A stretch of 64,000 nt of DNA from Candidatus Liptonbacteria bacterium (lineage in GTDB: Bacteria > Patescibacteriota > Minisyncoccia > UBA6257 > 2-01-FULL-56-20), in contig JACQKU010000008.1 in the NCBI GenBank assembly GCA_016204335.1, positions 10,913 to 74,912 of the forward strand, given 5' to 3'. This document shows, in pieces, positions 38,261-55,256 of this stretch. Each line of letters begins with the position of its first letter. The first letter of the stretch is position 1. The notes under the pieces are model-generated. The model ran no database searches. It was not told the origin of the DNA and saw only the letters and a program-made list of their open reading frames with translations. A program made the position numbers and the translations under genes.

Positions 38261-38384
38261 ATCCCGTTAGAAACAACAGCTCCATGATTTTTACTACAAT
38301 GTTTCATATTTCAAACAAAAAAGTCGATTCAACTAAAATCGTTGATGTACGGTCGCCCGGGGCGGCCCGCTTCTAATGGGATGA
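38261..38384. repeat. Motif C module 1: ATCCCGTTAGAAACA - 92-nt spacer - TCTAATGGGATG (ATG = GT4 start)
   Basis: 15-nt terminus after the GT10 stop. A degenerate inverted copy supplies the GT4 start codon. Confidence 0.5.
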
Positions 38385-39607
38385 AAGTCGCTTTGGTTTG
38401 TTACAACTTGAAATGGGAAGGCGGGGGACAGCGCCTGATTTACGACTTGGCTCACGTTCTAACAGATACGGGCCACCGCGCGACGGTTTTTGCTCCGGAT
38501 ACCGAATATGAACCCAATGCCTACGCGGAGCTTCAGCGCGGCGTCGATATCCGGCTGGTCAAAATGCCCTCTCCATACAATTGGGCTCCGCTTCGCGCCA
38601 ATGCGTTCCGCCGCATGCTGTACAAATTTAAAAAGGAGCGGTGGCTCATCAACGCGGCGCGCATAATGGCAGCGCAGTTTCCGGTCGGCGAGTACGATGT
38701 TATAAATCTTCACGACCAGGCGTATAAATTCGCCTATTTTTACCGCAAACGCGAGCCGAACATCCGCATCGTCTGGACGAATAACGATGCGCAGTATTTA
38801 TATTTACCGCATCCGGAGAGCGTGATTTACGATTGGGGCAGTTGGATTTACAATAAATTCAAAGATTATGCCGAATCGCGGTTTTTCAAGGTATTCGATG
38901 CGGTTCAGGTTATCGAACTTGTGAACGCGCGCTGGACGGAAGAACGCGGAATGAAAGCGAACATTATCCGCCCCGGCGTCGATTTCGAAAAATTTTACGA
39001 CCCGGTTCGCGATGTCACATCCAGGGCAAAACAGAAAAAAGTCCAGATTCTCGGGTTCGGGAATCTTAATCCTTCGCGGCGTTATGAAAATATCGTCGAA
39101 GCGGTAAAAATTCTCCGCGACCGCGGCTATGACGCAAACGCCAAAATCGTTTGCCGCGATTTGTGGAAGAACGCGGCGCTCCGCGAAAAGCTTCTTACGC
39201 TCACCAAGGACTGGGGTCTCGACATAGAATTCAATTTTAACGGCGTGAGCGAGGAGAGAGCCCGGGCGTTGAGACATGAGAGCGACGTGATGGTACTTGC
39301 CATCCATCTGCCGCCGCCGAGGGACGGATTCCCCTGGCAGCTTATCGGCATCGAAGGAATGGCCGCAGGTCTGCCCCTCGTTCTTTCTAGAAAAAACGGC
39401 CTTTGCGAGGTTCTTACCGACGGAGAGAACGCTCTCTTTTTTGAACCGCTCCACGCCGAGCAAATTGCGGATAAAGTGCAATTTTTAGTCGATAATCCGG
39501 AACGACGGAATGAAATCGCGAAAAACGGCCAAGAATTTGTGCGCAAAGAACTTCAATGGAGCCACTATACGAAAGAAATACTGCGGCTTTTTGAGGGAAA
39601 GAGTTAA
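38381..39607 (+). CDS. GT4-family (group 1) glycosyltransferase
   Basis: C-terminal EGMAAGLPLVLSRKNGLCEVLTDGENALFFEP (E-x7-E-like GT4 motif). Confidence 0.8.
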   Translation: MKVALVCYNLKWEGGGQRLIYDLAHVLTDTGHRATVFAPDTEYEPNAYAELQRGVDIRLVKMPSPYNWAPLRANAFRRMLYKFKKERWLINAARIMAAQFPVGEYDVINLHDQAYKFAYFYRKREPNIRIVWTNNDAQYLYLPHPESVIYDWGSWIYNKFKDYAESRFFKVFDAVQVIELVNARWTEERGMKANIIRPGVDFEKFYDPVRDVTSRAKQKKVQILGFGNLNPSRRYENIVEAVKILRDRGYDANAKIVCRDLWKNAALREKLLTLTKDWGLDIEFNFNGVSEERARALRHESDVMVLAIHLPPPRDGFPWQLIGIEGMAAGLPLVLSRKNGLCEVLTDGENALFFEPLHAEQIADKVQFLVDNPERRNEIAKNGQEFVRKELQWSHYTKEILRLFEGKS

Positions 39608-39614
39608 CGTTTTC

Positions 39615-39629
39615 TGTTTCTAACGGGAT
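39615..39629. repeat. Motif C copy TGTTTCTAACGGGAT followed by ATG (start of NUDIX gene 39628)
   Basis: Perfect reverse complement of 38261-38275. It lies 7 nt after the GT4 stop. Confidence 0.6.
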
Positions 39630-40092
39630 GAAAAAGTATTCTGTCGTCCGAAAAAGAATTCCCGAAAAGATTTATAAGGAAATCCACCGTTCATTGCCGA
39701 TAGTTTGCACGGACCTCGTCGTAACCGATGGAAAGCGGTTTTTTCTGGTAAGACGGAAAAATAAACCCGAAGCCGGCCGGTGGTGGTTTCCGGGCGGCAG
39801 AATTTTTAAAAATGAACTGTTAAAAAATGCGGCGCTAAGATTTTTAAAGCGCGAAACCGGGCTCAAAGGAAGTAAGCCAAGCCTATTGGGATTTTACGAG
39901 TACTTTGCGACGCCGGGGTATTTCCCCCGGATAAGTTCACATACCGTCATTTTTGTATTTAAAATAAAAGCTTCTTCAAATTTAAAATTCCGCCTGGATA
40001 GACAAAGCTCGGCCGCCAAATGGTTTTCAAGAATTAATCCGGCGTGGCATCCATACATCAAAACCTTTTTAAGGAAAGCTGGTTTAGAGTAA
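39628..40092 (+). CDS. NUDIX hydrolase, GDP-mannose mannosyl hydrolase (Gmm/NudD)-like
   Basis: RWWFPGGRIFKNELLKNAALRFLKRETGL parallels the Gmm variant Nudix box ([29 protein letters not shown]). Confidence 0.6.
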   Translation: MKKYSVVRKRIPEKIYKEIHRSLPIVCTDLVVTDGKRFFLVRRKNKPEAGRWWFPGGRIFKNELLKNAALRFLKRETGLKGSKPSLLGFYEYFATPGYFPRISSHTVIFVFKIKASSNLKFRLDRQSSAAKWFSRINPAWHPYIKTFLRKAGLE

Positions 40093-40138
40093 TGACATTA
40101 TGAAAATTCTCAGCTTGGCGCAATAAGATTTATATTCA

Positions 40139-40642
40139 ATGACAACGCTCGTCTTCAAAAGATTTTTTTGTAAAATCGCGTATCCGCTTGCCGCCTGGAT
40201 TCTTTGGCGGGTTAGGCCGGATGCCTCGGCCTCTGCCTGCGCGATCGCGACAAACGGGAAATTGCTTTTAATTCAGCGTTCGTACGGGCCAGGCATGTGG
40301 GATCTTCCCGGAGGGAGAATCGGCAATAAGGAAACACCGGAAGAAACCGTGCGGCGTGAAGTTGAGGAGGAAGTTGGCGTCACTCTTGGGACGGTAAAAC
40401 TGTTCGGTGAGCATTTTTTTCTTCGCGATGATGGCATTAAGCGCGGCGTGGTGCATTGTTTTTACATTGAAGTGCCGAACGAGAATTTTATCCTAAAAAG
40501 CGGGGAAATCGCCGCGGCGAAATGGGTTGCCTTAGATAGCATTCCCGAATTTCATACTCAGTCGGTTGACACCACGCTCAGATTTTTGGACCCTCAAAGG
40601 CCCTGCCCGCCGTCAATTTCCAAGCACATCACGATTTTTTGA
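40139..40642 (+). CDS. NUDIX hydrolase (canonical Nudix box)
   Basis: GGRIGNKETPEETVRREVEEEVGV = GX5EX7REVXEEXGV. Confidence 0.7.
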   Translation: MTTLVFKRFFCKIAYPLAAWILWRVRPDASASACAIATNGKLLLIQRSYGPGMWDLPGGRIGNKETPEETVRREVEEEVGVTLGTVKLFGEHFFLRDDGIKRGVVHCFYIEVPNENFILKSGEIAAAKWVALDSIPEFHTQSVDTTLRFLDPQRPCPPSISKHITIF

Positions 40643-40675
40643 AACGGCTATCCTTAATGGCTATATAAGTCGGCG

Positions 40676-41737
40676 CTAAATATAATTTAACTCGTTAAGG
40701 CGTTCAATGACGCCAGTCGAATTGTTTTTTTGTTGTATAGCGAGGACGACCTCGGCTTCCGACACAATTTTTCTTAACGTACCCAAAATTTTTACCGGGT
40801 TTTTGCCCACTGCGGTTTCCGAAGAAAGAATCAGGCCATTCACGCCGTCGAGTACAAGGTTGATTATATCGTTGACTTCGCCTCTTGTAGGTTTGTCTTT
40901 GTGGAGCATGTTTTCAAGGAGGTGAGTAGCCACGAAAATAGGTTTCCTTTCTTTAACGCACTGTTTAGTGATGAGTTTCTGAACAAACGGTATTTTTTCG
41001 TAACCGATTTCCGTTCCGAGATCGTTTCTGTCGATAAGAATAGTGTCGCTTGCCGCGATTAGAGAATCAAGATTGTTAATTGCCCGGCGCGTTTCGATTT
41101 TCGAGGAAATCAGGATATTTTTTTTGCCGATAAATCGCCGTACTTCCTCCACATCTTTCGCGGCGCTGACGTACGACAGGGAAATCTCGGAGATTCCGTA
41201 TGGGAGAGCTTTTTTTATTACCAAACGGTCTGCGTCGGTAAGCATCGTTTTCGGTTCAATCTTTTTTTCGAGTCGGATGTTTTTTGGCACGCTCATTTCG
41301 CCTCCGCGCACTATCACGCACTCCAGCCGCGGGGACGGATCTTTTTTTCGCCCCAATACTTTTAGCACGATCCGGTTGTCGTCTATGGATATTTTTTCGC
41401 CTCTCGGGATGGCGGCGATGAATTCGGGGCGCGTGATCCATAAGGATTTTGATTGCATCGAAGAACCAAACGGTATTATTGAGATATGTTCGCGGCGTTT
41501 CAATATCGCCGTTTTTCCGAAAGGAGCCATCATTCTTGTTTCTTTTCCCTGGGTGTCAATGATGATGGGAATTTTCTTCGAGAGCGCGCGAATGTCCTCG
41601 ATAAGCTTTATCGCGCGTTCAGGGGGGGTGTGGCTAAGATTGATGCGAAGCGCATCGGTTTTTTTCCTTATGAGACCGGAAAGGGTTTTTGCGGAATCGG
41701 ACTTCGGTCCTATTGTGCAAATAATTTTTGTTTTCAT
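40676..41737 (-). CDS. Pyruvate kinase-like protein (barrel and cap domains only; lacks the usual C-terminal domain)
   Basis: MKTKIICTIGPKS...RINLSHT, ISKIETRRA, DRNDLGTEI, VATHLLENM...PTRGEVNDI follow the PK barrel. 353 aa versus about 470 for typical PK. Confidence 0.6.
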   Translation of the reverse strand: MKTKIICTIGPKSDSAKTLSGLIRKKTDALRINLSHTPPERAIKLIEDIRALSKKIPIIIDTQGKETRMMAPFGKTAILKRREHISIIPFGSSMQSKSLWITRPEFIAAIPRGEKISIDDNRIVLKVLGRKKDPSPRLECVIVRGGEMSVPKNIRLEKKIEPKTMLTDADRLVIKKALPYGISEISLSYVSAAKDVEEVRRFIGKKNILISSKIETRRAINNLDSLIAASDTILIDRNDLGTEIGYEKIPFVQKLITKQCVKERKPIFVATHLLENMLHKDKPTRGEVNDIINLVLDGVNGLILSSETAVGKNPVKILGTLRKIVSEAEVVLAIQQKNNSTGVIERLNELNYI

Positions 41738-41752
41738 GGTTATAATTATGCG

Positions 41753-43144
41753 CTATATCAATGGTTTTCCGGAGAGTTTTTTATACTCTTTTATCCCGAG
41801 CGCCTTGAGAATTGTAGGGGCGATTTGAACGGTTTCGACCTGCCCGAGGTTTCCTAAGGGGCCGCCTTCTTTTTTTAATATAATGACGCCTTCGGGAGCA
41901 TGCCCGGCATCGTCGGTCCCGACAGTAGTTCCTTCGGAATACAGCCCTTTATTCCCGATATCGTTATTGGTTCCGTAGCGAAGGTTGTCGAAATACACTA
42001 CTGCGTCAGGGGCTTTATCGCCTTTTTTCCTGTAAATTTTTGAAGTATCGTATACCTTTGTATTCAATTTTTCGCCTTTTACGCCTCTAATTAGCGGAAG
42101 TTCTTTACTAATCCGTCTCAAAATTTTCACCCTGTTTTTTTTGTCGTAAATATAAACATTTGCCTGATATCCTTCAGTGGCTATGACACTCGTTTTATCC
42201 CAGTCTATGGTTTCGTAGTCGAGTCGTTTCGGGCCGTTTGCGTAAAAATCCGCAAATTCTTTTTTTACGGCCAAAAAACCTTTTTCCCGCAGCCAGTCAT
42301 TTAAATTTATCCGGCGAATCATGTGGTCCATTCCATGGTCGGACACCACCATCACCGTTGTTCCGGAATCCATTTTTGAATGTTTCATAAATTTTCCGAA
42401 CTCCCCATCCACGTATTTATAGAAATCCAATACCGCGTTTTTGTAGGGTGAATTTTTGACGTAGCGTTCATGAGTGGGGTCAATATGCGCCCAGAACATA
42501 TGGTGAAGTCGGTCTGTGCCGATAGTCACAAAATCAAAAAGGTCCCAATCCATTTTTTCAAAAAGATAGCGGGCAATTTTGAAATGCTGTTTGGTCATTT
42601 TATAACTTTGCGAGATGAGAAAATCCAAATTCATTTTCTTATATCCCAGAAATCCGGCCACATCAAACATGTAATCTTTGCCGAAAAGAAGTTCTTGGAT
42701 TTTCTTCTTGAAAGAAACCGGATAGACGCTCTTATCGTCAAAGCTTGGAGTCAAAAAATCGGTTACCATTACCCCGTTAATTTTTTTTGCGGGATAGGTG
42801 AGAGGGATATTGAGCGCAATTGTCTTCTTTCCTTTTCTGCTCAGCATATCCCAAAGCAGAGGAGTTTTTATATCGGTAGATGTAACGAGCGAAGGAGTGC
42901 GGTAATGGCGTCCTTGTTTTGCCATATAACTTTGAATACCGGTTTCTCCGGGGTCCCTGCCGCTGTTGATAGAAGTCCAGGCGACGGTTGAAGTCGGCGG
43001 AACGGTGGAGTTCAAGATTCCGTAAGAACCTTCTTCGATAAGACAGGAAAAGTTGGGCAATTGGTTTCTATAACGCCCGAATACCAGTTTAGGGACAAAT
43101 CCATCTATGCCGAAAAGAAATACTTTTTGCTTTTTGGGTTTCAT
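41753..43144 (-). CDS. Alkaline-phosphatase-superfamily type I phosphodiesterase / nucleotide pyrophosphatase (PF01663-like)
   Basis: FLFGIDGFVP...STVPPTSTVAWTSINSGRDPGETG (metal-binding T/S nucleophile region) and MVVSDHGMD. Confidence 0.65.
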   Translation of the reverse strand: MKPKKQKVFLFGIDGFVPKLVFGRYRNQLPNFSCLIEEGSYGILNSTVPPTSTVAWTSINSGRDPGETGIQSYMAKQGRHYRTPSLVTSTDIKTPLLWDMLSRKGKKTIALNIPLTYPAKKINGVMVTDFLTPSFDDKSVYPVSFKKKIQELLFGKDYMFDVAGFLGYKKMNLDFLISQSYKMTKQHFKIARYLFEKMDWDLFDFVTIGTDRLHHMFWAHIDPTHERYVKNSPYKNAVLDFYKYVDGEFGKFMKHSKMDSGTTVMVVSDHGMDHMIRRINLNDWLREKGFLAVKKEFADFYANGPKRLDYETIDWDKTSVIATEGYQANVYIYDKKNRVKILRRISKELPLIRGVKGEKLNTKVYDTSKIYRKKGDKAPDAVVYFDNLRYGTNNDIGNKGLYSEGTTVGTDDAGHAPEGVIILKKEGGPLGNLGQVETVQIAPTILKALGIKEYKKLSGKPLI

Positions 43145-43149
43145 CGCAG

Positions 43150-44289
43150 TTATACGAATAATTTTTTTTCTTTAAGCAGTATCCTTGATATCTCGCGTCT
43201 TAGCATTTCCGCGGGAGGGGCTTTACCAATCGTAAGCATGTTCCGTATGAGCGTACCAGAGGAGTGCACGCGATACTTTTCTCCGTGCGGGCAGGCGTCC
43301 TCGAATGCGGTAGTCTTGCAACGCGTGCAGTAAAAGGCTTTTCCAAAATGGAAAATTTTTATGCCCATTGCGCGGTTATATTTTCCAATCATAAAGGCGT
43401 AATTTTGAAGCGTGTAAAAGTTTCCGACGCCCGTGTGGTCGCGCCCGACGATAAAATGCGTACAGCCGAAATTTTTGCGGATAACGGCGGTTAAAAGAGC
43501 CTCGCGCGGCCCCGCGTAGTAGGCATTGTAGGGAAGAAAGCTCAAGACGGCTTTCCCGCGCGGAAGAATGTGCGCCACAAAATAACGATAAGCTTTTGCC
43601 ACGACCTCATTCCGGAAATCGCCTTTCTTTTTAGAACCGATTAACGGATGCACAAGAATGCCGTCGGTTTTTTTAAGACCTTCCTTCTGGATGTGTTCAT
43701 GCCCAAGATGAGGCACATTCCTGGTATGAAACGCGACAATCTGTTTCCAATGCTTTTTTTGAAAAAGAGTTCTTGTTTCGCGCGGAGTCAGATACGGAAG
43801 TAATGTTCGAAGCGGTTTTCCGATCCAGGTAATATCTCCGCCGATAAGATACGGTTTTGCGCGTTTAAGTTTCGCCACGCCGGGATGCGCGACATCTGTC
43901 GTGCCGAATACTTTTTTTGCGAAAAGCGTTTTGGGAAAAGGATATATTTCTGAAATTTCGAGAAGCCCTATGATTTTTCCGGAAAAGTTCTTAAGAAATA
44001 TCTCCTTTTCTTTGAAAATTTTTTTTCGTTCGTCGGCATCAATATCAAGGATAATCGGGATAGGCCAGAAGACGTTGTTTTTCAGAGACAAATGATTGAG
44101 CACAGACAGGAAATCTTTTTTATTCAAGAATCCACTAAGGGGACTGTATGCTCCCGTTGCGATATTCCACAGTTCAACGATTTTTTCGTGAGCTATCGGA
44201 AGCGACCGAAGTTTTTGCGCCAAAAGCCGTCTCTTTTCTTTTGGAGACGCGATACGATTAATCAGCTTGTTGCCCAGAGGTTTATTCAT
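43150..44289 (-). CDS. sat: Sulfate adenylyltransferase (ATP sulfurylase)
   Basis: AFHTRNVPHLGHEHI (QTRNxxHRAHE-type motif) and IVGRDHTGVG (GRDHAG motif). Confidence 0.85.
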   Translation of the reverse strand: MNKPLGNKLINRIASPKEKRRLLAQKLRSLPIAHEKIVELWNIATGAYSPLSGFLNKKDFLSVLNHLSLKNNVFWPIPIILDIDADERKKIFKEKEIFLKNFSGKIIGLLEISEIYPFPKTLFAKKVFGTTDVAHPGVAKLKRAKPYLIGGDITWIGKPLRTLLPYLTPRETRTLFQKKHWKQIVAFHTRNVPHLGHEHIQKEGLKKTDGILVHPLIGSKKKGDFRNEVVAKAYRYFVAHILPRGKAVLSFLPYNAYYAGPREALLTAVIRKNFGCTHFIVGRDHTGVGNFYTLQNYAFMIGKYNRAMGIKIFHFGKAFYCTRCKTTAFEDACPHGEKYRVHSSGTLIRNMLTIGKAPPAEMLRREISRILLKEKKLFV

Positions 44290-44292
44290 GGA

Positions 44293-44511
44293 TTAAAGAT
44301 ATCCGAGTTTTTTCAGATGCTCGCGGATTTGCGTTTCTTCAGCAAAGAGCGGCTTATCGGTTTTTTCCAAAAGAAGTTCGCGCAAAATAAAGGCGACAAA
44401 AGCGGATACAGACACAAAGCCCGTGCCGTCGATTGTTTTTTCTATCCGGGCGTGAAGCGAACGGGGGATTGAGACAGTCGTGTAATCATTCCGTTTCTTT
44501 TTGATAGCCAT
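44293..44511 (-). CDS. Ribbon-helix-helix (CopG/NikR-like) DNA-binding protein
   Basis: TVSIPRSLHARIEKTI...GFVSVSAFVAFILRELL is an RHH signature. First gene of the sat operon. Confidence 0.6.
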   Translation of the reverse strand: MAIKKKRNDYTTVSIPRSLHARIEKTIDGTGFVSVSAFVAFILRELLLEKTDKPLFAEETQIREHLKKLGYL

Positions 44512-44777
44512 AGTGTAATTATGGGTAATTACAATTTGGTGTCAAGGGGTGGCTGTGGATAAACGTATTGGGTTAACAAAATGCCGATATAAGGCCTGTT
44601 TTATTGCTTATCCAGCCGGATTTTGCTAATATACGGCAATGATAAAGAAAAAATCTTCAAAAAAGCGGGTGCCAGAAAAAGAAGCGGGGAACGCCGACAT
44701 AGAAAAGCGGAAGGAGGGGGAGCGGAAAAAAGTTATGGAACAGTTGCGCGCGCTGGGATATATTTAGGGAACCAATG

Positions 44778-44904
44778 CCAGGCAGTAGAACTGCGACATT
44801 GGCAGTTCGTAATTTCAATGATTCATATCGCGAGAAAGGTCTTTTTTACTTTAGAAACTTGTAACAAGTCAGCCGCAGGCTGAAGTCGCAGTTTCACTGC
44901 CTGG
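44778..44904. repeat. Palindromic element family B copy 2 (CCAGGCAGTAGAACTGCGAC...GTCGCAGTTTCACTGCCTGG)
   Basis: Ends 2 nt before the ATG of the sulfatase-like gene. Confidence 0.5.
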
Positions 44905-44905
44905 T

Positions 44906-46300
44906 ATGCCTTCACAGAAAAGGAGAACAAAGCCCAACGTCATTTTTATTGTCATCGACGGACTGCGCGCCGACCATCTCGGCTCGTTCGGCTACCGCCG
45001 CCCCACGAGCAGATTTTTGGATGCGTTCGCGAAAAACTCGGTTAATTTCCGTTCGCACTTTTCAAACAGTTCTCAATCGGCGCCGGGATTTTTTTCTATT
45101 TTTGCATCGGCATATCCTTTTATGCGGAGCGATTGGACGACGACCAAGGGTCCTTATGAATTTTTAAGTGAAGTTTTTCGAAAAAACGGTTACAAAACTG
45201 CAGGATTCGCCTGTTCTCCTTATATCTCTTCATTCTTCGGCTATGACCGCGGGTTCGACGATTTTTATTATTCCGGATGCCATGATGATTCGGATGCGGT
45301 GAAAAAAACCATAAAGTCGACATTACCCTCGCGGATGTTCGAAATGCTCAAGAAGTTTGTTAAAACCACCACTATCGGAAAAATGATGAATCGTATCAGA
45401 TTCCGTTTTTTAATGCAGCCCGCTTACAGCAATTCGGAAGCAATCAATGAAATCGTGGAAAATCATCTTTCTCGTAGCGATTGCAATGACAGGCCTCTTT
45501 TCGCGTGGATCCACTACTTGGATGCGCATGTTCCTTTTAGAAGCAAAAAAAATGATATTCGGGCGGTGGGAGGACGCTTTGGCGCGCGGCGCGCAAATTT
45601 TTTGGACCGTAAAGTATTCAGCTTTACACTCCTCAATCCTTTTGTCGATGAAGAACGGATGACCGTTCAAGAACTCAAAGACCTTGAGCTATGTTATGAC
45701 GCGCAAATTTACCGCGCCGATCGCAATCTCGAAAAATTGTTTTCAATGCTTTCGGAGAACGGTATCTCCCGGGAGAATTCCGTAATCGCGATTACCGCCG
45801 ACCACGGAGAGGGATTCGGGGAACACTTCGGCATAGGGCATACTATGCGTCTTTATGATGAGTTGGTGCATGTTCCTTTCTTTTTATCAGTACCGGGAGG
45901 AAAACCGCGCGAAGTTTATGATCTCACCAATCATATCGATATTGTGCCGACACTCGCCGCATCCGCGGGAATTTCTTTGCGAAGCCGTTTCATCAAAGGC
46001 AAAAATGTGCTTAAGGGTTCGGATACAAAGTATGTCTTTAGCGAAGTCGCGCCGAACCTCGGCGGCATGCTCTCTAAAATAGATTTTTCAAGAAGCGTGT
46101 TTTCCGTCCGCGGAAAGGAATGGAAATATATCAAGGATTATGCAAGGGAAAGAGAGGAACTTTACCATTTATCGGAAGATCCTGACGAGTTGAAAGATCT
46201 GTCGCAAACGGAAGTAGACGTTAAAAACAAACTTTGGAATTTGTTGAGAGTACATATCAAGAGGAAAACGAAAGCGGTGCCGTATCTTAAGGATGTCTAG
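44906..46300 (+). CDS. Sulfatase-like hydrolase/transferase (alkaline phosphatase superfamily); canonical C/S-x-P-x-R sulfatase motif not evident
   Basis: NVIFIVIDGLRADHLGSFGY (metal site), TADHGEGFGEHF and overall sulfatase-domain layout, but NSSQSAPG in place of CxPxR. Confidence 0.65.
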   Translation: MPSQKRRTKPNVIFIVIDGLRADHLGSFGYRRPTSRFLDAFAKNSVNFRSHFSNSSQSAPGFFSIFASAYPFMRSDWTTTKGPYEFLSEVFRKNGYKTAGFACSPYISSFFGYDRGFDDFYYSGCHDDSDAVKKTIKSTLPSRMFEMLKKFVKTTTIGKMMNRIRFRFLMQPAYSNSEAINEIVENHLSRSDCNDRPLFAWIHYLDAHVPFRSKKNDIRAVGGRFGARRANFLDRKVFSFTLLNPFVDEERMTVQELKDLELCYDAQIYRADRNLEKLFSMLSENGISRENSVIAITADHGEGFGEHFGIGHTMRLYDELVHVPFFLSVPGGKPREVYDLTNHIDIVPTLAASAGISLRSRFIKGKNVLKGSDTKYVFSEVAPNLGGMLSKIDFSRSVFSVRGKEWKYIKDYAREREELYHLSEDPDELKDLSQTEVDVKNKLWNLLRVHIKRKTKAVPYLKDV

Positions 46301-48369: not shown

Positions 48370-49338
48370 TTATTTAGATTTTTTTTGCAAGTCGGCCAAA
48401 TCTGCTTCCACCATTAGCTTCACAAGTTCTTTGAATTTTATTTTTGGACTAAAACCAAATGCGTTTTGCGCTCTTGAGATATCGCCTACGAGTGCCGTGT
48501 TTTGCGCCGGCCTTAAAAATTTCGGATTTATTTTGACATATTTTTGAGAGTCAAGTCCGACGGTGGCAAAGGCCTCGTCTACGAATTCTTGCACCGAGTG
48601 CGCTTCTCCGGTGCAAATGATATAGTCATCCGCTTTTGGCTGTTGCATGATGTTCCACGCCGCCTCCATGTATTCTTCGGCGTAGCCCCAGTCGATTTTA
48701 GCCGAGAGGTCACCCAATTCAAGAACATCCTGGAGGCCGAGCGAAATTCGAGCGACGGACTTGGTTATCTTTCTTGTGACGTATTCGTCTGGTCTCCGCG
48801 GCGATTCGTGATTGTAAAAAATGGCAGTGGCAACGAACATGTCATACGCTTCGCGATAAAAGCGGCTTACGACGTAGGCCAGGACTTTAGCGCATGCATA
48901 GGGGCTCTGCGGCCGAAACGGAGTGTTCTCGTTCTGCGGATGTTCCGTTGCCTTGCCGAAGACATTCGAAGTGATGGGCTGGAAGAATTTTATGTCCGGA
49001 TTTACTTGTTTTACGATTTCAAGAATTTTTCCGACAGCCACGCCGGTAACATTATATTGATATTCCACGATGTCAAAACTCCAGCCAGCGTGGTCCTGGT
49101 CGGCTTCGTTGTAGATTTCTTCCGGATTAACTTCGCGGATTACCTTCCAGAGCGAGTTCGTGTCCAAAAGGTCGCCGCGATGAAGTATCAAAGAGTCCTT
49201 TATGTGTTCAATGTTTTTGGTGTTGCCGGTCGCGGTGCGCCGGATAAACCCGTGGACTTCGTATCCTTTTTCAAGAAGTATTTCGGCAAGATATGACCCG
49301 TCTTGCCCCGTGATGCCTAAAATGAGAGCTTTTTTCAT
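48370..49338 (-). CDS. GDP-mannose 4,6-dehydratase paralog
   Basis: [40 protein letters not shown]; about 60% similar in motif pattern to gmd at 12608. Confidence 0.8.
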   Translation of the reverse strand: MKKALILGITGQDGSYLAEILLEKGYEVHGFIRRTATGNTKNIEHIKDSLILHRGDLLDTNSLWKVIREVNPEEIYNEADQDHAGWSFDIVEYQYNVTGVAVGKILEIVKQVNPDIKFFQPITSNVFGKATEHPQNENTPFRPQSPYACAKVLAYVVSRFYREAYDMFVATAIFYNHESPRRPDEYVTRKITKSVARISLGLQDVLELGDLSAKIDWGYAEEYMEAAWNIMQQPKADDYIICTGEAHSVQEFVDEAFATVGLDSQKYVKINPKFLRPAQNTALVGDISRAQNAFGFSPKIKFKELVKLMVEADLADLQKKSK

Positions 49339-49411
49339 GCTTGTCAATTTTACCATCTTATCAACTCTTGAGAAAATATGAAAGAGGAGATGGATTGTCC
49401 TGCCCCGTTAT

Positions 49412-49921
49412 TCATTTCCTCCGGCGCCGATTATGAAAATGCCGCGCGATAAATCGGCGATGGATGGTAATCATCTTTCGCGGCAGGCGCGATGCGTCCC
49501 AAAATTTCATGTCCGCGGTTTCCCGAACCGTTTTCCTTGGCTCGCAAAGAACGTACACCGAGAGCGGTCGTCCGTAGGGATGTTCGCCTTCGCGCCATTT
49601 ATCGGCATCGAGGACTTCGAGATACTTCACATCGAAATCCAACTCGCGTTTTGCGACGCGCGAGCAGGTTTCCTGGATCGTTTCATTCCAGATATTATAG
49701 CCGCCAGGAATGTGCCAATAGCCGCGCGCGAATTTCCCCTGATAGGGCGTGAGAAGTATCTCGGCGCCATGCGTGCGTTTGCGGAGGATCACGAGTTCCG
49801 GCGCCCACATTGAAACCGCGCCATGGAGCGGTTCGAACGCTTCATCGGGAATAAAAAAATTTTGCTCGGGTATTTTTTTGAGGAGCCGCGCCAGTGTTTG
49901 CGCTTCTTTTTTCGTCATCAT
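49412..49921 (-). CDS. Divergent NUDIX-like hydrolase
   Basis: WHIPGGYNIWNETIQETCSRVAKRELD is a degenerate Nudix box. Confidence 0.4.
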   Translation of the reverse strand: MMTKKEAQTLARLLKKIPEQNFFIPDEAFEPLHGAVSMWAPELVILRKRTHGAEILLTPYQGKFARGYWHIPGGYNIWNETIQETCSRVAKRELDFDVKYLEVLDADKWREGEHPYGRPLSVYVLCEPRKTVRETADMKFWDASRLPRKMITIHRRFIARHFHNRRRRK

Positions 49922-50162
49922 GTCGTTCTCATCATAACCGATTTACCGAAGAATGAAAAAAAGGATGTGGTTCGCTCTTCCGTGAATCGAAAACTCCTCG
50001 CTAAATTGTGAGCAATTTCTTCTCCGTTTCCATCGCGGTGATTTGGAGGTGCCTTCTTTTAAAAATGGAAGAGGGGAACGCGGCGATGTCGTCGCGTCCC
50101 CCTCGGTGCTTCCCCGCGCGTCCTCCTGGTGCCGGGGTTTTCTGACCATATCGGCCGGTGCT

Positions 50163-50885
50163 CTAGTCGCCGAACGGGTAAGGTATGATTCCCTCCTCCT
50201 CGAGCTGGTCGCGGAGGCCGTCCGTGACCAGGCGGAAGATCGCGGCCCGCTTCGCGGCGAGGAGCTTCCCGAGCTGGGTGCGGATGCACACGCCCGACTC
50301 GGAATCGACCCAGTCGAGCGAGTAGGCGATGTCCCGGAACACCGTCCTCGGTGCCTGGTACGTTGCCTCAGGGTCGTCGAGGAAGTGTTTGTAGTCGACG
50401 ACCGGCAGATCCGCATAGTGCTGACCGGACCTTGCGAAAAGATCGCCGTCCAAGTTCACGATCCGGTCGGCGTCCATCAGCGCGATGAGCACCGGCGAGT
50501 CGTTCGAAGAGTTCTTGCCGTCGTGGCCGAGGACTGCGGCCACGATAGCATCCACTTCGGGGCCGTAGTAGCCGAAGACCGGCTCCGGGACGTGCCCATA
50601 CGCGGATGGGCGAGTCTCGGTCATAAGCCAGCTCTTGACGAGCCGGCTCGTTTCGTCAGTGGGCACTTCGCGCCGGCCAACGCCGAGCTTCTTCTGTATC
50701 ACCTTGTCGGCGTTGTGGCAGAGCCCGGCTACACCGGCGAGCTCAGCGGTCTGCTTGTCGGTCTCGTTGAGGCCGATCTGGTAGGCGATCTGGCCTACCC
50801 GCGCGGCGTGCACCCAATCGTGGTGCCCGACGAGACCGACTTCCTCGTGGCTCTTGTGGACTGCAGCGAACAAATCGGGGAACAT
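50163..50885 (-). CDS. HD-domain metal-dependent phosphohydrolase-like protein, paralog 1 (GC-rich xenolog)
   Basis: Shares ordered blocks with the next two genes (LAGVAGLCHNADKV / DADRIVNL / IIPYPFGD). Own SD (GGAGGGG) and terminator hairpin at about 50085-50115. GC content far above the window average. Confidence 0.6.
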   Translation of the reverse strand: MFPDLFAAVHKSHEEVGLVGHHDWVHAARVGQIAYQIGLNETDKQTAELAGVAGLCHNADKVIQKKLGVGRREVPTDETSRLVKSWLMTETRPSAYGHVPEPVFGYYGPEVDAIVAAVLGHDGKNSSNDSPVLIALMDADRIVNLDGDLFARSGQHYADLPVVDYKHFLDDPEATYQAPRTVFRDIAYSLDWVDSESGVCIRTQLGKLLAAKRAAIFRLVTDGLRDQLEEEGIIPYPFGD

Positions 50886-51119
50886 CTCCCAGATTCTCAC
50901 TTGCCCCTCCCTTCGGGTTAGAGTCGTTGCAAGAGCAGTTCGTCGGCAGAGATACACTCCGCCGTCAAACCGCCGGTTTTCGGTAAGGACGATACACATA
51001 CTTCCTTTCTTCAGTCGTATTCACTTTTCAAGGGCTGATATAGCGAAAGGGGCCAGGTCCGCCGAACTGCTTTTAGTGAAACATAAATCAAAAGATATGT
51101 CAAATCACCGCTCCCCCCG

Positions 51120-51821
51120 TTAATTCTTTTTTCGCGAAAACGGATACGGCCGAAGGCGGCTTTCCTTCAGCTGGTTTTCTATGTCCTGCATGAATATTTT
51201 GAGAAATGCGAACCGCTTCGCGCCGATTTTTTTTGCCTTGGGGAGCCGGAGCCATTTTTTCCACTCAAGCGAGTATGAGATGTCTTTTCCGACTGACTCG
51301 GGATGACGATAACTCGATGAGGGATGGTGGAACAGATGAATATAGTCAAGAACTGGAAGGTGTTCGAGCTCCTTCGCGCTCCGAAGGCACAGGAGCGCGC
51401 CGACATTCGCGAGACGATCCGCGTCTTTGAGCGCTACGGTTACTTTGCTGTCGCGCGGATCGTTTCGTTTGCGATGCTCCATTACTGCTTCGATCACCAA
51501 TTGTTTGTCGTTATGGTTGAGTGTGGTGTATTGTAAATATTGGATAAGTTTTTTCCGGACAAGAGTATCAAGGGTATGCTTTTTTCGGAAATGTTCCGGA
51601 ACGAGACCTCGTTCGATAAGATGATCCGTATTGTGGCATATTCCGGCAACCCACGCGAGTTTGGCTGTTCGCGCGTCGTCTGCGATGCGAACGCTGTAAT
51701 TCGCGACCATCAGCGCGTGCTCAAAGTCATGCCCGCTCTCGCTTGCCCTCACTTTTTCGTGATCGCGAATGACCATAGTAAGAAGTTCCGTGTATTTTTT
51801 GATGAGTGTTTCGATGGACAT
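51120..51821 (-). CDS. HD-domain phosphohydrolase-like protein, paralog 2
   Basis: RDHEKVR..GHDFEHAL...LAWVAGICHNTDHL...ALKDADRLANVGA...RPYPF. Confidence 0.6.
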   Translation of the reverse strand: MSIETLIKKYTELLTMVIRDHEKVRASESGHDFEHALMVANYSVRIADDARTAKLAWVAGICHNTDHLIERGLVPEHFRKKHTLDTLVRKKLIQYLQYTTLNHNDKQLVIEAVMEHRKRNDPRDSKVTVALKDADRLANVGALLCLRSAKELEHLPVLDYIHLFHHPSSSYRHPESVGKDISYSLEWKKWLRLPKAKKIGAKRFAFLKIFMQDIENQLKESRLRPYPFSRKKN

Positions 51822-51829
51822 GATTTATA

Positions 51830-52528
51830 TTATAGGAGGTGCTTGTATGTTGCGGGAAGCGGATACATCCCGATTGATTTCAATTGGCGCATAATATCGT
51901 TGAGCGCTTGGCGCATAAACTCGGCGCCCGGTTTGGAAATATGTTTTGCTTTCAGAAGCCGAATTTTCACCGATGGCTTCTCGGTCCATTCCAAAACATA
52001 GGTCAAATCTTCCACTGCTGTTTTTTCTTTGCCGAACGAATTTTTCAAGCGCATTGGCGAAACAAAATCGAAGAGCGACCTATTGTGATAATATTGCCCA
52101 ATGCGAAGGAGTACAATCGCGCCGAAATCCGCGATTCTGTCCGCGTCTTTCAGCGTTACGGTTACCCTATCATCGTTCGGATCATTTTTTTTCGTGTGAT
52201 TCATCACTGCCCGGAAAACGATTTCTTTTTCTGAAGCCGTGAGGGGAGTTTTTTGAAGATGCGCCTTAAGTATTCGCGGGGTGTTTCTGTTTCCGAACAA
52301 GCGGTCAGTGTTGTGGAGAATTGCCGCCAGCCAGGCAAGCCGCGCGGTTTTTTTATCCGGAGCGATTTTGAGCGCGGTGTTTGCCACGCGGAACGTATGC
52401 CCGATGTCGTGATGATGCCCCACTTTTTTCACTCGCGTTTTATGATCGCGCGATACTCGAGCAAGAAGCAGATGAAATTCTTTTCCCAAAGAAGGAAGCA
52501 GATAGGTAAAATCTTTCGAATTTCTCAT
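51830..52528 (-). CDS. HD-domain phosphohydrolase-like protein, paralog 3
   Basis: RDHKTRV..GHHHDIGHTF...LAWLAAILHNTDRL...TLKDADRIADFGA...MYPLP. The start codon is embedded in motif C (52528-52542). Confidence 0.6.
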   Translation of the reverse strand: MRNSKDFTYLLPSLGKEFHLLLARVSRDHKTRVKKVGHHHDIGHTFRVANTALKIAPDKKTARLAWLAAILHNTDRLFGNRNTPRILKAHLQKTPLTASEKEIVFRAVMNHTKKNDPNDDRVTVTLKDADRIADFGAIVLLRIGQYYHNRSLFDFVSPMRLKNSFGKEKTAVEDLTYVLEWTEKPSVKIRLLKAKHISKPGAEFMRQALNDIMRQLKSIGMYPLPATYKHLL

Positions 52529-52647
52529 CCCGTTAGAGACAGGTCGCCTCGGGCGACCGTAATTCAGCGGTTTTTACTGCAATCGCTTTTGGGACGGCAA
52601 GATAAGACATAGTTTAGAAATCATAGTATTGTTGTCTCTAACGGGAT
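52528..52647. repeat. Motif C module 2: ATCCCGTTAGAGACA - spacer with GGTCGCCTCGGGCGACC hairpin - TGTCTCTAACGGGAT
   Basis: 15-nt perfect inverted termini bracket the C-MT2 stop / HD3 start junction. Confidence 0.6.
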
Positions 52648-53855
52648 TTCTTCCCGATAATTCTGAATCGAGGAATCGGGACGATGAATTTTCCTCCGTT
52701 TTTGAGCCAGATTTGCTCGCGCTTCACGAATGTATCCGTGAACGCCCACGGCAAAATCAAAAAATAGTCGGGATTTTTTTTGCGCGCTTGTTCCTCGGAA
52801 ACGATAGGAATGTTTGTGCCAACGGTGAACTTGCCCCATTTTACTTTGTCTTTGTCGGCGGCGGCTGTGATTAACTTTGACGTGAGTCCATAGTATTGGA
52901 GAATGGTGTTGCCTTTTGTTGACGCGCCGTAGGCATAAACTGTTTTGCCTTTTTCAACTTCGCGTTTGATGAACTCAACGCACTTCCTTTTGTTTTCTTC
53001 GAGTCGCTTTGCGAAAGCGGGGTAATCGAATTTCGGCTCCGGATATTTGACGCTTCCCTTGTTTAGTTTTCGCGCGAACAAACGATAACTTCCTCCGTTT
53101 ATGGAATTTTCTTCGACTTTGAATATCTCGAGGCCGTTTTTCTCAAACAGGTACATCAGCGACGGATAAGAATAAAATTCAAGATGTTCGTGGCAAATGT
53201 TGCCGACGTCGTTTTTTTCGATCATGGGTTTCAGCGTCATCAGTTGCGCGATGAATACGCCGTCGTCGGCAAGGGCTTGAGCGGCGTCGCCGACGAACTG
53301 CCCCGGATTTTCCATATCGTAAAACATTCCGATGGCGGTGATGATTTTCGCTTTTGGAATCCCGAGTTTTTTATACGCCGCGTACGACCAGAAATCGTGA
53401 ATGATTTTGTCGGCGTGTTTTTTAAGCTTCGCTTGGAGATTGTTCGCGGGTTCGCAGGCGGCACGGATATAGTTCGGAGAGAAAAATTTCAAGAGCGTGC
53501 CGTCGTTCGCGCCGATATCCAAAACAACATCGTCTTTCTTGAGCTCCGCGAGTTTTTGGGAAACGCGGGCAATTTCTTTCAAATCGCTCACGATAACCGG
53601 ATTGACGGCGGACTGATACCAATAATGCCGTGAGTACATTATTTCTTGCGGGGCGGTATGTTTCAGTTGAAGCAAGCCGCACTTTGAATTTGAGCACAGA
53701 ACCAATTCCAGCGGCGCAAGTATCGGCTTTTTAGATTGTTTGGTTACGAAATCGGAAACCGCCAACTTCCCCAAAGAAAGAATTTTTTTGAGTTTTTTGC
53801 CTCCGCAGAGGCGGCAGGTTTTTCTTGTGATGTAAGATAGTTTTATTGCCTTCAT
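52638..53855 (-). CDS. NDP-hexose C-methyltransferase (TylC3-like), paralog 2
   Basis: CRLCGGKKLKKILSLGKLAVSDF Zn-ribbon, VLDIGANDGTLL, and C-terminal TVYAYGASTKGNTILQYY domain. Confidence 0.75.
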   Translation of the reverse strand: MKAIKLSYITRKTCRLCGGKKLKKILSLGKLAVSDFVTKQSKKPILAPLELVLCSNSKCGLLQLKHTAPQEIMYSRHYWYQSAVNPVIVSDLKEIARVSQKLAELKKDDVVLDIGANDGTLLKFFSPNYIRAACEPANNLQAKLKKHADKIIHDFWSYAAYKKLGIPKAKIITAIGMFYDMENPGQFVGDAAQALADDGVFIAQLMTLKPMIEKNDVGNICHEHLEFYSYPSLMYLFEKNGLEIFKVEENSINGGSYRLFARKLNKGSVKYPEPKFDYPAFAKRLEENKRKCVEFIKREVEKGKTVYAYGASTKGNTILQYYGLTSKLITAAADKDKVKWGKFTVGTNIPIVSEEQARKKNPDYFLILPWAFTDTFVKREQIWLKNGGKFIVPIPRFRIIGKKSR

Positions 53856-53932
53856 TTTGATCGTAAGATACTGTATCATATTATTAATCTGCCGTTAAGC
53901 CAAGCGAGCTTTTCACGACACATTTTGCTTAA

Positions 53933-55129
53933 ATGAAAATAGGAATTGTAAATTTTGATCTCGGCGCGCCCATGGGGGATACGAGGTGCACCGGCTCTTT
54001 TGCCCGCGCTTTAAAAAAATCGGGTCATGAAGTTATTGTCTATACCACAGATTTCAACCCTGGACTTTTTTACGACTTGTGGAGCGGCATTGAGGTAAAA
54101 GTTTTTCCGCAAAAACCGCCGCTCGAAAAGATTCTTCTCGGCTCGTCAGGGATTTTCGCGAGGGCGTTGAGAAAAGTTCGGACAAACCTCTGGGCCCGGC
54201 GCGCCGCGCGCGATTTCAGCGGCAAAATAGATCCCGATTTAGACATTCTTGATTGCCACAATTGGTACACGTATAAGATTGCTCCGCTTTACCGCAAAAT
54301 AAATTCGCGAGCGCGGATTATTTGGACGATGCACGATCCGCCGTTCAATTACCGCCCTAAAAAAAACCCAATTTTAAACTTACTAGCGCTTATCCAGTTT
54401 TACGTTGAGCCGTTGTACGAGAAACGGTTTTACTCGTGCGTCGATGAAATTATCGTCATGGACGAGAGAAGTCGCAACATTGCCAAAGATTACTCTCCTA
54501 AAGTGCGCCTGCTTTATTTGGGCATTGACTATGACCATTTTTATATGCCGCCCCGCAAGCGCGATCGCAAAAAGCGCCTCCGACTTTTAGGCGTTGGCTC
54601 AATGAGTCCCTACCGCCGCTTCGAAGATATTATCGAAGCAACTCGTCAAATGCGCGAGAACGGATTGGATGCTTTGGCGACTATTGTTTGCCGTGATTTT
54701 TGGGGAGATAAGGCTTATCAAGAAAGCTTTTTATCGGCGATGAAGAATTCCGGAATAGAAAAATTTTTGGATTCGCGTCAAGATGGCGTAAGCGAAGAAG
54801 AGCTCTTAAAAATTTTCCGCGAAAGTGACGTTTACGTGTTCCCGAATCACATCCGCATTTGGGGCATGGCAGCCTTCGAAGCTATGGCTGCCGGTTTGCC
54901 TCTTATTGTTTCAAACATAACCAGCGCCTCCGAAGTTCTTAAGGACGGTGAAAATGCCCTTTTTGTTGACCCGCTAAGGCCTGATCAGATAGCGCAACAG
55001 GCCAAAAAACTTTCCGAGGATGATGGTTTTTATCGAAAGATAGCGGGAAATGGACAAAAGTTTGTCCGCGACAATTTGACTTGGGAAAATTACGCCAAGA
55101 ATTTTTTAAGTGATTCAGCGTCACAATGA
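53933..55129 (+). CDS. GT4-family glycosyltransferase
   Basis: FEAMAAGLPLIVSNITSASEVLKDGENALFVDP. N-terminal half resembles the GT4 at 38381. Confidence 0.8.
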   Translation: MKIGIVNFDLGAPMGDTRCTGSFARALKKSGHEVIVYTTDFNPGLFYDLWSGIEVKVFPQKPPLEKILLGSSGIFARALRKVRTNLWARRAARDFSGKIDPDLDILDCHNWYTYKIAPLYRKINSRARIIWTMHDPPFNYRPKKNPILNLLALIQFYVEPLYEKRFYSCVDEIIVMDERSRNIAKDYSPKVRLLYLGIDYDHFYMPPRKRDRKKRLRLLGVGSMSPYRRFEDIIEATRQMRENGLDALATIVCRDFWGDKAYQESFLSAMKNSGIEKFLDSRQDGVSEEELLKIFRESDVYVFPNHIRIWGMAAFEAMAAGLPLIVSNITSASEVLKDGENALFVDPLRPDQIAQQAKKLSEDDGFYRKIAGNGQKFVRDNLTWENYAKNFLSDSASQ

Positions 55130-55256
55130 ATCCCATTAGAGACAACTTTGCTATGAATTCAAGATTTACAAAATGCAATAAGGTAAGCCAAAAGTCGAAG
55201 CAATGCGGCTTAATCACGGGTATGCTCTTAGGCATACCCTGTCTCTAAACGGGATG
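55130..55256. repeat. Motif C module 3: ATCCCATTAGAGACA - spacer with GGGTATGC..GCATACCC hairpin - TGTCTCTAAACGGGATG (ATG = start of next gene)
   Basis: Begins the nucleotide after the GT4 TGA stop. The right terminus carries the ATG of the CgeB-like gene. Confidence 0.6.

Follow-up and report, generated by a model that had tools for sequence, protein, structure and literature searches.

In a 64-kb stretch of a metagenome-assembled genome (MAG) of Candidatus Liptonbacteria (hereafter the window), a member of the Candidate Phyla Radiation (CPR, or Patescibacteria), three units of ~120 nt with 15-nt inverted arms, here named J1, J2 and J3, are placed between the stop codon of one gene and the ATG of the next. 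We find that these units are miniature, non-coding and internally deleted derivatives, akin to MITEs (miniature inverted-repeat transposable elements), of a 281-bp element that is common in Patescibacteria and that consists almost entirely of one open reading frame (ORF) for a 94-aa single-domain GIY-YIG nuclease. That they are derivatives of a mobile element, inserted with duplication of a start codon, we hold to be probable (roughly 0.8). A preliminary description of this DNA had proposed either an array of integron gene cassettes with attC-like sites or an intergenic module, novel and mobile, by which start signals are transplanted; the second of these appears essentially right, in that a derivative of a mobile element duplicates the start codon, and the first is set aside for the reasons given below.

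A family of start codon units in Patescibacteria

Read in gene orientation, J1–J3 share one layout, in which a left arm is followed by an interior of ~90 nt, a GC hairpin and a right arm ending in CGGGATG. The arm sequence ATCCCGTTAGAGACA, allowing up to 3 mismatches, has eight copies in the window against 1.17 expected, and none of 100 shuffled sequences reached eight. The preliminary description had placed inverted arm pairs at three gene junctions and a solitary arm at a fourth (S4), with an upstream stop close to each left arm and with the ATG of each right arm serving as the start of the next gene; we recovered all of these features (listed below, with the ATGs at 38381, 39628, 52528 on the minus strand, and 55254), and its gene identities (GT10 and GT4 glycosyltransferases, Nudix, C-methyltransferase, HD and CgeB-like) are supported by Pfam.

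38257–38385, plus strand: unit J1, short MITE-like form, between GT10 and GT4
38257–38261 and 38381–38385, plus strand: J1 left and right flanking ATGAA repeats, the right one being the GT4 start
38261–38275, plus strand: J1 left arm ATCCCGTTAGAAACA, 1 mismatch
38351–38367, plus strand: J1 inner hairpin (hairpin 3), GGTCGCC-CGG-GGCGGCC, from the fold, with family covariation at 8 of 8 pairs
38368–38382, plus strand: J1 right arm CGCTTCTAATGGGAT, decayed (3 mismatches), overlapping the GT4 ATG at 38381
39587–39632, plus strand: S4, 5′-truncated relic of the long, GIY-YIG-coding form, at the GT4/Nudix junction
39615–39629, plus strand: S4 solo right arm TGTTTCTAACGGG, then ATG; the Nudix start ATG is at 39628
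52524–52651, minus strand: unit J2, short form with perfect 15-nt arms, between the C-methyltransferase and HD genes
52633–52647, minus strand: J2 left arm; TAG 52640–52638 inside the arm is the stop of the upstream C-methyltransferase
52542–52558, minus strand: J2 inner hairpin, GGTCGCC-CGA-GGCGACC in gene orientation
52527–52541, minus strand: J2 right arm TGTCTCTAACGGGAT, overlapping the HD start codon
55126–55258, plus strand: unit J3, short form belonging to a divergent subfamily, at the junction of GT4 with the CgeB-like glycosyltransferase
55126–55130, plus strand: J3 left ATGAA, containing the GT4 stop TGA 55127–55129, which touches the left arm
55130–55144, plus strand: J3 left arm ATCCCATTAGAGACA, 1 mismatch
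55218–55239, plus strand: J3 inner hairpin, GGGTATGC-loop-GCATACCC
55240–55255, plus strand: J3 right arm TGTCTCTAAACGGGAT, 1 mismatch and a 1-nt insertion
55254–55258, plus strand: J3 right ATGAA, the CgeB-like start; the NCBI protein P0001 (100% identical) begins at 55254

The upstream stop is found 15 nt ahead of the left arm in J1 (TGA 38243–38245 of the gene on the GT10 side), inside the arm in J2 and directly against it in J3. In J2, the left ATG copy has been lost (AGAA), and the right-hand ATGAG supplies the HD start (52528–52526); the fold of this unit has a z-score of −5.2. At S4, positions 240–286 of a profile of the long form described below, corresponding to its last ~45 nt, match 39587–39632 (E 3.9e-4), and the short-form profile matches at the 3′ end only. 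J1 and J2 share an interior identity of 0.60, and J3 one of 0.34–0.39 with the others; with the arms of J1 and J3 decaying and the left ATG of J2 gone, the four copies of the window are old and in decay.

A profile hidden Markov model (nhmmer) built solely from the units of other genomes matches J1 (38257–38384, E 6.8e-19), J2 (52648–52525, E 6.6e-27) and J3 (55126–55257, E 6.6e-15) over their full length, so homology runs through the interior and extends beyond the arms. The conserved blocks of the family are ACAAC after the left arm, YATGAWTT, AAAAGTCG, and a TTACGG-hairpin-CCTGTCTC segment. In GTDB contigs (one genome per species), the paired-arm pattern was found at 60 loci, of which 59 are titled as Patescibacteria/CPR lineages (among them Jorgensen-, Harrison- and Saccharibacteria, Paceibacteria and Microgenomates) or as plain “bacterium” MAGs, often with several loci per MAG and with up to 6–8 copies in one MAG; the one remaining locus bears a Woesearchaeota MAG title, probably through mis-binning. 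A metagenome scan contributed 113 further stretches. Searches of viral contigs returned neither the short-form nor the long-form pattern and so gave no evidence for phage carriage, and Rfam, searched with the window at the gathering threshold, gave only a tRNA, while four unit-bearing loci searched at E ≤ 1 gave no match on the units. Full-text literature searches found no description of this element, of its start codon targeting and duplication or of its miniature derivatives. GIY-YIG ORFs have been described in non-intron insertions of CPR rRNA genes, together with many unexplained insertions of <200 bp (PMC11270868), and these may belong to the same element family.

As a separate observation, the Woesearchaeota-titled locus (L032, 5260–5657) and a locus of a Saccharibacteria MAG (L040, 5–402) hold the same tandem pair of a long and a short form, with identical short unit and flanks, which points to mis-binning or recent transfer.

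The units lie between two copies of ATGRA

Across the family, ATGA, ATGG or, in occasional cases, ATGC comes before the left arm, and CGGG on the right is followed by these letters again. In the 115 distinct units that have a left ATG, the two sides agree at the fourth base in 112 (A/A 96, G/G 14, C/C 2, with 3 mismatches) and likewise at the fifth base (112 of 115: A/A 107, G/G 5, with 3 mismatches); long forms in which ATGAG is followed by TCCCG have ATGAG on the right in 3/3 cases. The flanks of a unit are 4–5-bp direct repeats, ATGRA, by which the inverted repeat is not extended, and the “empty” targets reconstructed from them hold no information beyond ATG-R-A. In nearly all units, the right-hand ATG opens a long ORF (100–900 aa), so that unit and host gene share one orientation. 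At the level of sequence comparison, the element can be seen to occupy a start codon's ATGRA in the direction of the gene, the pentanucleotide being present on both sides. Because ATGRA is duplicated in this manner, the upstream stop and the downstream start both survive.

The left arm itself holds stops in both of the non-ATG frames (the TGA of ATGA and the TAG of GTTAGAG), such that upstream genes reading into it terminate at once; several upstream genes end at one or the other, J3 using the TGA and J2 the TAG within the window. Tandem units are also present, at whose junction ...CTAACGGGATGA runs directly into ATCCCG....

Units in three loci (L042, L046 and L062) have an interior that is inverted relative to the host gene. 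The ORF after the dimeric unit of L042 (411–1562, minus strand) is a phosphoglucomutase with domains II–IV only, and this unit may have inserted at an ATG inside the gene and so have split it.

The long form encodes a small GIY-YIG nuclease

Some arm pairs are 273–274 nt apart, and in these the left ATG opens a 94-aa ORF that fills almost the whole of the 281-bp long form: the N-terminus MNPVRDN is the translated left arm, and the C-terminus FLSLTG with its stop is the right arm, the TGA of the nuclease overlapping the host ATG as ATGA. The ORF matches the Pfam GIY-YIG family (PF01541) with E 1.8e-16 and 60.6 bits against a cutoff of 22.6, as its sole domain. Across 95 proteins (consensus ..YvYvl.S.K...WYTG.t.DLRKRF.eHn...liYYE..), conservation covers the motifs YvY, YTG, R, H and E and is also strong in a basic segment near the C-terminus, REkYLKsGMGKRYLkNRLKRF. 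A protein search retrieved 3535 database proteins at E ≤ 1e-5; the best 120 of these are mostly of exactly 94 aa and start with MNPVRD..., and 96 of the 120 end in FLSLTG. In CPR MAG records, the nuclease is labeled “GIY-YIG nuclease family protein” or else bears the mistaken name “excinuclease ABC subunit C”.

The loci that we fetched hold 89 long forms, of which 47 are distinct and intact. A perfect 5/5 repeat flanks 34 of these 47, and in 11 the stop of the upstream gene is the TGA of the left ATGA. In one context, the nuclease gene is set between mreB-mreC-(151-aa ORF) and the gene for penicillin-binding protein 2 (PBP2), with 4-nt overlaps on both sides; in another, it lies between a helix-turn-helix gene and a nucleoside triphosphate (NTP)-transferase gene.

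The closest solved relatives are proteins of the UPF0213 family, BH0048 (PDB 1zg2, E 2.4e-9) and EF2693 (PDB 1ywl, E 9.4e-4), which have the same size and the same single domain. The CPR proteins differ from them in their arm-encoded termini and their distinct conserved basic C-terminal region. We know of no function for UPF0213 proteins and of no reported association with inverted arms.

Two MAGs that contain short units also hold stand-alone small GIY-YIG genes whose products do not have the MNPVRDN and FLSLTG termini (L049, 5083–5334; L050, 3340–3594). Such genes might encode nucleases that act in trans, or might be ancestral to the armed form.

Short units arise by deletion and retain an inner stem

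The two forms have a helix in common. Two complementary segments of the long form, ACGGAAGCGCTTCAA (codons LRKRF) and TTGAAGCGCTTCC-T-GT (codons LKRFL, adjoining the right arm), lie ~150 nt apart and form a 13-bp helix in which 96.4% of cells are paired across 45 long forms. Six of its pairs change on both sides at synonymous positions (as at 106–274, AU in 23 and GC in 19, or at 112–268, UA in 23 and CG in 14), shuffled and slid controls falling far lower. The short form, with 112–121 nt between arm ends, is the first ~97 nt of the long form, the same helix now closed by a loop of 3–10 nt (hairpin 3), and the right arm; long and short forms align over the 5′ ~97 nt and the last ~25 nt. Hairpin 3 shows double changes in 8/8 pairs over 69 short units, with 92.6% of cells paired (matched in 0/500 shuffles), and the arms pair in 98.9% of cells in the same units, a figure to which searches biased to intact arms contribute. 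Short units have therefore lost the ~150-nt loop with most of the catalytic core, including the conserved glutamate of YYE, and have kept the arms and the inner stem. As these are kept as pairing in coding and non-coding forms alike, they are probably cis-signals for mobility that are read in a folded single strand. Mismatches are more often A.C (32) than G.T (16), an excess that misfits a sense-strand RNA and gives a weak hint that it is the bottom DNA strand that folds.

ORFs remaining in short forms span 7–42 codons and are devoid of the GIY and YIG residues; the remnant MNPVRDN...ADLRS...CL* represents the N-terminal part of the nuclease in degenerate form. Of 52 units with a left ATG, 23 have a remnant ORF whose stop is ≤5 nt from the host ATG. 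A conserved micro-ORF or leader peptide was considered and rejected: only about half of the units are in frame, in ~20 a stop comes after 7 codons, and the peptide is the nuclease fragment just described.

The preliminary description had ascribed to the spacers a shared core, TTTTTACTRCAAT, and a GC hairpin. The hairpin beside the right arm is real and conserved, being hairpin 3; the core is not a homologous block, since it lies on opposite strands relative to the unit in J2 and J1, and the family alignment holds no such conserved block. An invertible promoter, to which the position of TTTTTACTGCAAT on the other strand in J2 had drawn attention, was rejected likewise, the hairpin adjoining the right arm in all units and the “core” not being a conserved block.

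Throughout 1.3 Mb of fetched loci, arm pairs fall into two size classes only, ~100–150 nt (84) and ~250–300 nt (136), and we found no larger partner with a different gene inside these arms. A single long-distance pair exists, that of the J1 left arm and the S4 right arm, which share an A-variant (GAAACA/TGTTTC), stand 1353 nt apart (38261–39629) and bracket the whole of GT4. We take the two arms to belong to separate elements, a composite that formerly carried GT4 being a possible alternative.

Empty sites and proliferation within genomes

Comparison of junctions among relatives, which the preliminary description had suggested as a check, revealed that two of the window units are absent from orthologous positions. 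In locus L070, the GT4 and CgeB-like genes are joined by an uninterrupted 4-nt overlap (AATGA) in ccAATGAaaataattta, with no unit, where the window has cacAATGA, then J3, then ATGAagataattta. In locus L206, whose GT4 is 89% identical, the GT10/GT4 spacer is 51 nt and has no J1, and its ATG aligns with 38381 of the window. At the S4 junction, L206 has an ORF beginning MFYVYIINSTKNGQLY..., which is a GIY-YIG N-terminus (E 1e-6 against protein P0143).

Gene callers have placed the start of GT4 at ATG 38345, inside J1 (420 aa, Logan contigs L001 and L002). This call is an annotation artefact arising from J1; the L206 ortholog supports ATG 38381 (408 aa).

Short units also multiply as short forms within genomes. 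The non-coding interiors of short units on different contigs of one MAG can be 80–93% identical, within-genome pairs make up 15 of the 25 most similar, and the median identity of interiors is 0.55 for pairs within genomes against 0.40 for those between genomes. Their host genes are unrelated and include essential ones: gyrA, dnaN, topA, ychF, bipA, dprA, genes for penicillin-binding proteins (PBP2), pilM and glycosyltransferases. This range of hosts excludes a regulon-specific RNA and requires insertion to be near neutral for expression. The short unit therefore presents the features by which MITEs are recognized, namely small size with no intact transposase ORF, inverted repeats, target duplication, multiple copies, and presence or absence at orthologous sites; the 281-bp form with its identical arms would be the source of the mobilizing enzyme.

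Relation to Ssn nucleases and other known systems

The closest characterized counterparts of the CPR nuclease are the Ssn proteins, single-domain nucleases that are likewise 94 aa in length and that cut only single-stranded DNA (ssDNA), a few nucleotides upstream of a hairpin repeat (PMC11893778; Chenal et al, Nat Commun 2025). These enzymes are indifferent to the loop and remain active when two separate strands make up the stem, and their repeat–gene–repeat layout was likened by the authors to an insertion sequence (IS); a term search of their paper gave no mention of Patescibacteria or of start codons (PMC11893778). The likeness to the CPR elements extends to a GIY-YIG gene bracketed by a stem-forming inverted repeat, to a repeat (SRM in the Ssn systems) that is scattered beside many genes, to stems that begin ATTCCC or ATCCC (the CPR arms begin ATCCCG), and to the tolerance of a two-strand stem, a mode of pairing that the CPR arms would adopt over the length of the element. 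In contrast, each Ssn flank is a local hairpin of 20–50 nt, whereas the CPR arms are the halves of one 15-bp stem and lie within the ORF; the CPR elements add an inner stem, an exact start codon site with ATGRA duplication, a 116-nt deletion derivative, and presence/absence between relatives, and the term search of the Ssn paper brought up none of these features. The CPR protein is 40% identical (E 2e-12, pairwise) to a small Sinorhizobium GIY-YIG protein whose gene is flanked by ATCCCTGTG/CACAGGGAT hairpins. By analogy of size, domain and layout, and through this homolog, the CPR nuclease may be called Ssn-like. The S. meliloti pSymB locus (L208) has hairpins at 410–432, 495–517 and 913–941 around a coding sequence at 592–882 (a 96-aa GIY-YIG protein), an Ssn-type layout in which the stems begin ATCCC.

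Two families of miniature elements invite comparison with the short units. Neisseria Correia elements are non-coding, 100–150 nt long, have terminal inverted repeats and a TA duplication, occur in many intergenic copies near gene starts, and can form a long hairpin in transcripts. Size, absence of coding capacity, inverted repeats, a short target duplication, many intergenic copies, proximity to gene starts and the capacity for a long hairpin are shared with the CPR units; these differ in targeting the start codon, in following the orientation of the host gene and in having, as putative autonomous partner, the 281-bp GIY-YIG gene, and we know of no cognate transposase gene with ends matching those of Correia elements. 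IS200/IS605 elements, which use an HUH Y1 transposase and have neither terminal inverted repeats nor a target duplication, resemble the CPR elements (as do repetitive extragenic palindromes (REPs) with their REP-associated tyrosine transposases (RAYTs), and palindrome-associated transposable elements (PATEs)) in being tiny, in their ssDNA hairpin signals, in oriented insertion by a 4–5-nt target and in giving rise to hairpin-only derivatives. The CPR elements differ from them in the 15-nt inverted arms, the 5-bp duplication and the GIY-YIG protein. A parallel with IS200/IS605 and REP/RAYT has also been drawn for Ssn (PMC11893778).

Alternative explanations

The cassette reading of the preliminary description, in which the units would be attC sites shuffled by an IntI integrase encoded elsewhere, is scarcely credible. 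The core GTTAGAG/CTCTAAC does fit GTTRRRY/RYYYAAC, the units are imperfect inverted repeats in the attC size range and lie between co-oriented genes, and their arms fold into a stem that is plausibly a single-strand substrate. An attC site, however, starts with RYYYAAC after the cassette ORF, ends with GTTRRRY, and conserves structure rather than primary sequence. In the CPR units, the order is reversed in gene orientation (GTTAGAG first, CTCTAAC last), conservation of primary sequence spans the whole unit in dozens of genomes, the start codon at the flanks is duplicated, and the same ends bound a GIY-YIG ORF; the units stand before gyrA, dnaN and topA and inside an mreBCD-pbp2 operon rather than in arrays, and the attC-like extrahelical bases that folding had been proposed to reveal are neither shared nor conserved in the folds. 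The underlying idea of a recombination site folded from a single strand may nonetheless be right in spirit, because the inner stem is kept by covariation and the closest characterized nucleases cut only hairpin-bearing ssDNA. Another reading that starts from the fold, a cis-acting RNA device kept by host selection (an RNase III site, or translational coupling or occlusion), seems very unlikely, although a secondary use of units by their hosts is possible. The fold is strong (z-scores of −2.5 to −5.2) and hides the AU of the start codon, the inner hairpin covaries, the arm helix of 15 bp stacked on hairpin 3 would make a duplex of RNase III size, and the remnant ORFs that reach the vicinity of the host ATG would suit coupling. 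That reading leaves the duplicated ATGRA and the nuclease-coding long form without explanation; its host genes have no common function, units are absent at orthologous junctions, G.U is not favored over A.C (16 versus 32), the ~20 units that stop right after the left arm mean that coupling is not general, and no Rfam family matches.

If the units are indeed mobile, the enzyme responsible could be another transposase, for example of the DDE type, the GIY-YIG ORF being cargo or having a different role, for instance Ssn-like restriction directed at incoming ssDNA. We regard this as unlikely, though it is the reading to which terminal inverted repeats with a target duplication of fixed length, a hallmark of DDE transposition, would naturally lead; in addition, strand transfer is not an activity known for GIY-YIG enzymes, and Neisseria SsnA modulates transformation rather than having been shown to move DNA (PMC11893778). 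Against it stand the two narrow size classes of arm pairs with no larger gene-carrying element in the 1.3 Mb, a nuclease ORF that fills the element, has the arms as its own termini and is under strong purifying selection, and a covarying inner stem that is not typical of DDE substrates. Alternatively, short units need not move at all: each could be a long insertion decayed in situ by deletion of the loop between the stem halves, the deletion endpoints coinciding with a slippage-prone structure and S4 providing an instance of a long form decaying in place. The probability of this appears small, since interiors 80–93% identical across loci of one genome, including changes away from coding sequence, indicate copying of the short form itself, and short units outnumber long forms in several MAGs. 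Spread as a free-standing homing endonuclease gene through double-strand-break repair at homologous loci, in the manner of the T4 seg and mob genes, is improbable to a similar or slightly greater degree than an RNA device: a weak match of the GIY-YIG domain to group I intron endonucleases (TIGR01453, E 1.7e-4), insertion in intergenic regions or at gene boundaries, and the occurrence of identical protein at the same locus in many samples speak for it, but the protein has no DNA-binding domain, its many targets lie at unrelated genes and share ATGRA only, and inverted arms, target duplication and miniatures are not features of homing.

Several points weigh against our own reading of the units as mobile-element derivatives. 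All of the evidence for mobility is comparative, and the empty-site orthologs, at 59% (L070) and 89% (L206) protein identity, are not isogenic strains; an exact-junction search for the empty J3 site in JGI metagenomes returned 0 matches. Arm conservation across genomes is partly ascertainment, as the searches demanded exact or near-exact arms, and the conservation of the inner hairpin in non-coding copies could reflect a host-level function. The copies of the window have diverged from each other (interior identity 0.34–0.60), J2 is without its left ATG copy, and tblastn found no nuclease gene within the 64 kb. With respect to the enzyme, the published SRM pattern matches only 1/69 short and 0/45 long units. 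To our knowledge, GIY-YIG nucleases hydrolyse DNA and are not known for strand transfer, and the 5-bp duplication and the joining to a new target are not accounted for in the absence of a strand-transfer enzyme.

A possible route of insertion and its consequences

For the units as derivatives of a mobile element, a mechanism can be outlined, of which the ssDNA- and nuclease-driven part is put forward tentatively, at somewhat less than even odds. What is required in cis would be the arms together with the inner stem, in a fold of single-stranded DNA. A full-length copy would provide, in trans, an Ssn-like nuclease that recognizes this fold and nicks near the ATGRA boundaries, and host replication and repair would finish the transfer. 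Given no more than a 5-nt asymmetric target and selection against the disruption of genes, the only insertions left would be those at start codons and in gene orientation. Sequence comparison shows the outcome of insertion: in the long form, the left ATGRA copy doubles as the start codon of the nuclease, which so borrows the initiation signals of the host gene, and in either form it preserves the overlapping TGA stop of the upstream gene, where there was one. The right copy restores the host start, and the overlap of the nuclease TGA with it (ATGA) would permit coupling by termination–reinitiation.

In the window, the present effect of the copies is probably passive, ~120 nt of strongly folding sequence (with the AU of the start codon paired) having come to lie between once-adjacent cistrons whose stop and start are kept. 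In J1 and J3, a remnant ORF of 38–40 codons runs from the left ATG to a TAA 4–5 nt before the host ATG and could preserve translational coupling; the arm helix might also be processed by RNase III.

A further step, that the 281-bp form is an autonomous transposable element whose sole product, the 94-aa Ssn-like nuclease, reads its own folded arms and stem in ssDNA and inserts the element at ATGRA, is conceivable, though we lean slightly against it. The smallest IS elements, at ~700 bp, are far larger. Were the proposal correct, GIY-YIG nucleases would constitute a new class of prokaryotic mobilization enzyme and the elements a new class of transposon; the Ssn family would gain an ancestral selfish-element function, and the spread of hairpin repeats such as NTS/dRS3 would be explained.

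Independently of the enzymology, a cassette array is replaced here by a start codon-duplicating selfish element and its miniatures, abundant in the streamlined genomes of CPR bacteria, and a small GIY-YIG/hairpin-repeat unit acquires comparative evidence of mobility in the form of target duplication, empty sites, within-genome proliferation and a deletion derivative. Duplication of the start codon would offer a parasite an economical route by which to occupy operons and the fronts of essential genes (gyrA, dnaN, topA) without silencing them. For annotation, “intergenic” spacers of ~120 nt in CPR operons should not be taken as regulatory by default, and the 94-aa protein could be considered, along with its defined stem, as a compact ssDNA tool.

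Other repeats in the window

The preliminary description had also listed two further copies, a degenerate one upstream of rny, which we place at 8650–8664 (minus strand), and a partial one, which we place at 26637. Neither could be upheld as a unit: in both, the profile match is limited to ~15 nt of the left end (positions 2–16 only), with E 0.049 for the former in a 583-nt search, and this former match faces the gene at 7002–8534 and not rny. Both are retained as possible relics only.

8650–8667, minus strand: possible left-end relic TGAATCCCATTAGAA, uncertain, ~115 nt upstream of the start of the minus-strand gene 7002–8534
26635–26649, plus strand: possible solo left-end relic TAAATCCCGTTAGAA, uncertain, in an intergenic region of convergent type, with an exact copy of the 12-mer ATCCCGTTAGAA

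A second family of inverted repeats, CCAGGCAGTAGAAnTGCGAC.../...GTCGCAnTTTCACTGCCTGG, occurs at 5684–5757, 26452–26563 and 44775–44907. The last copy is bracketed by ATGs, reading aATG before CCAGG...CCTGGt and ATGcc after it, and its right-hand ATG (44906) starts a sulfatase ORF; this may be another family of elements adjacent to start codons. Finally, a perfect 17-nt inverted repeat, CCCCCACACCAATGCCG/CGGCATTGGTGTGGGGG (1623–1740), brackets the tRNA-Leu(CAG) gene at 1643–1727.

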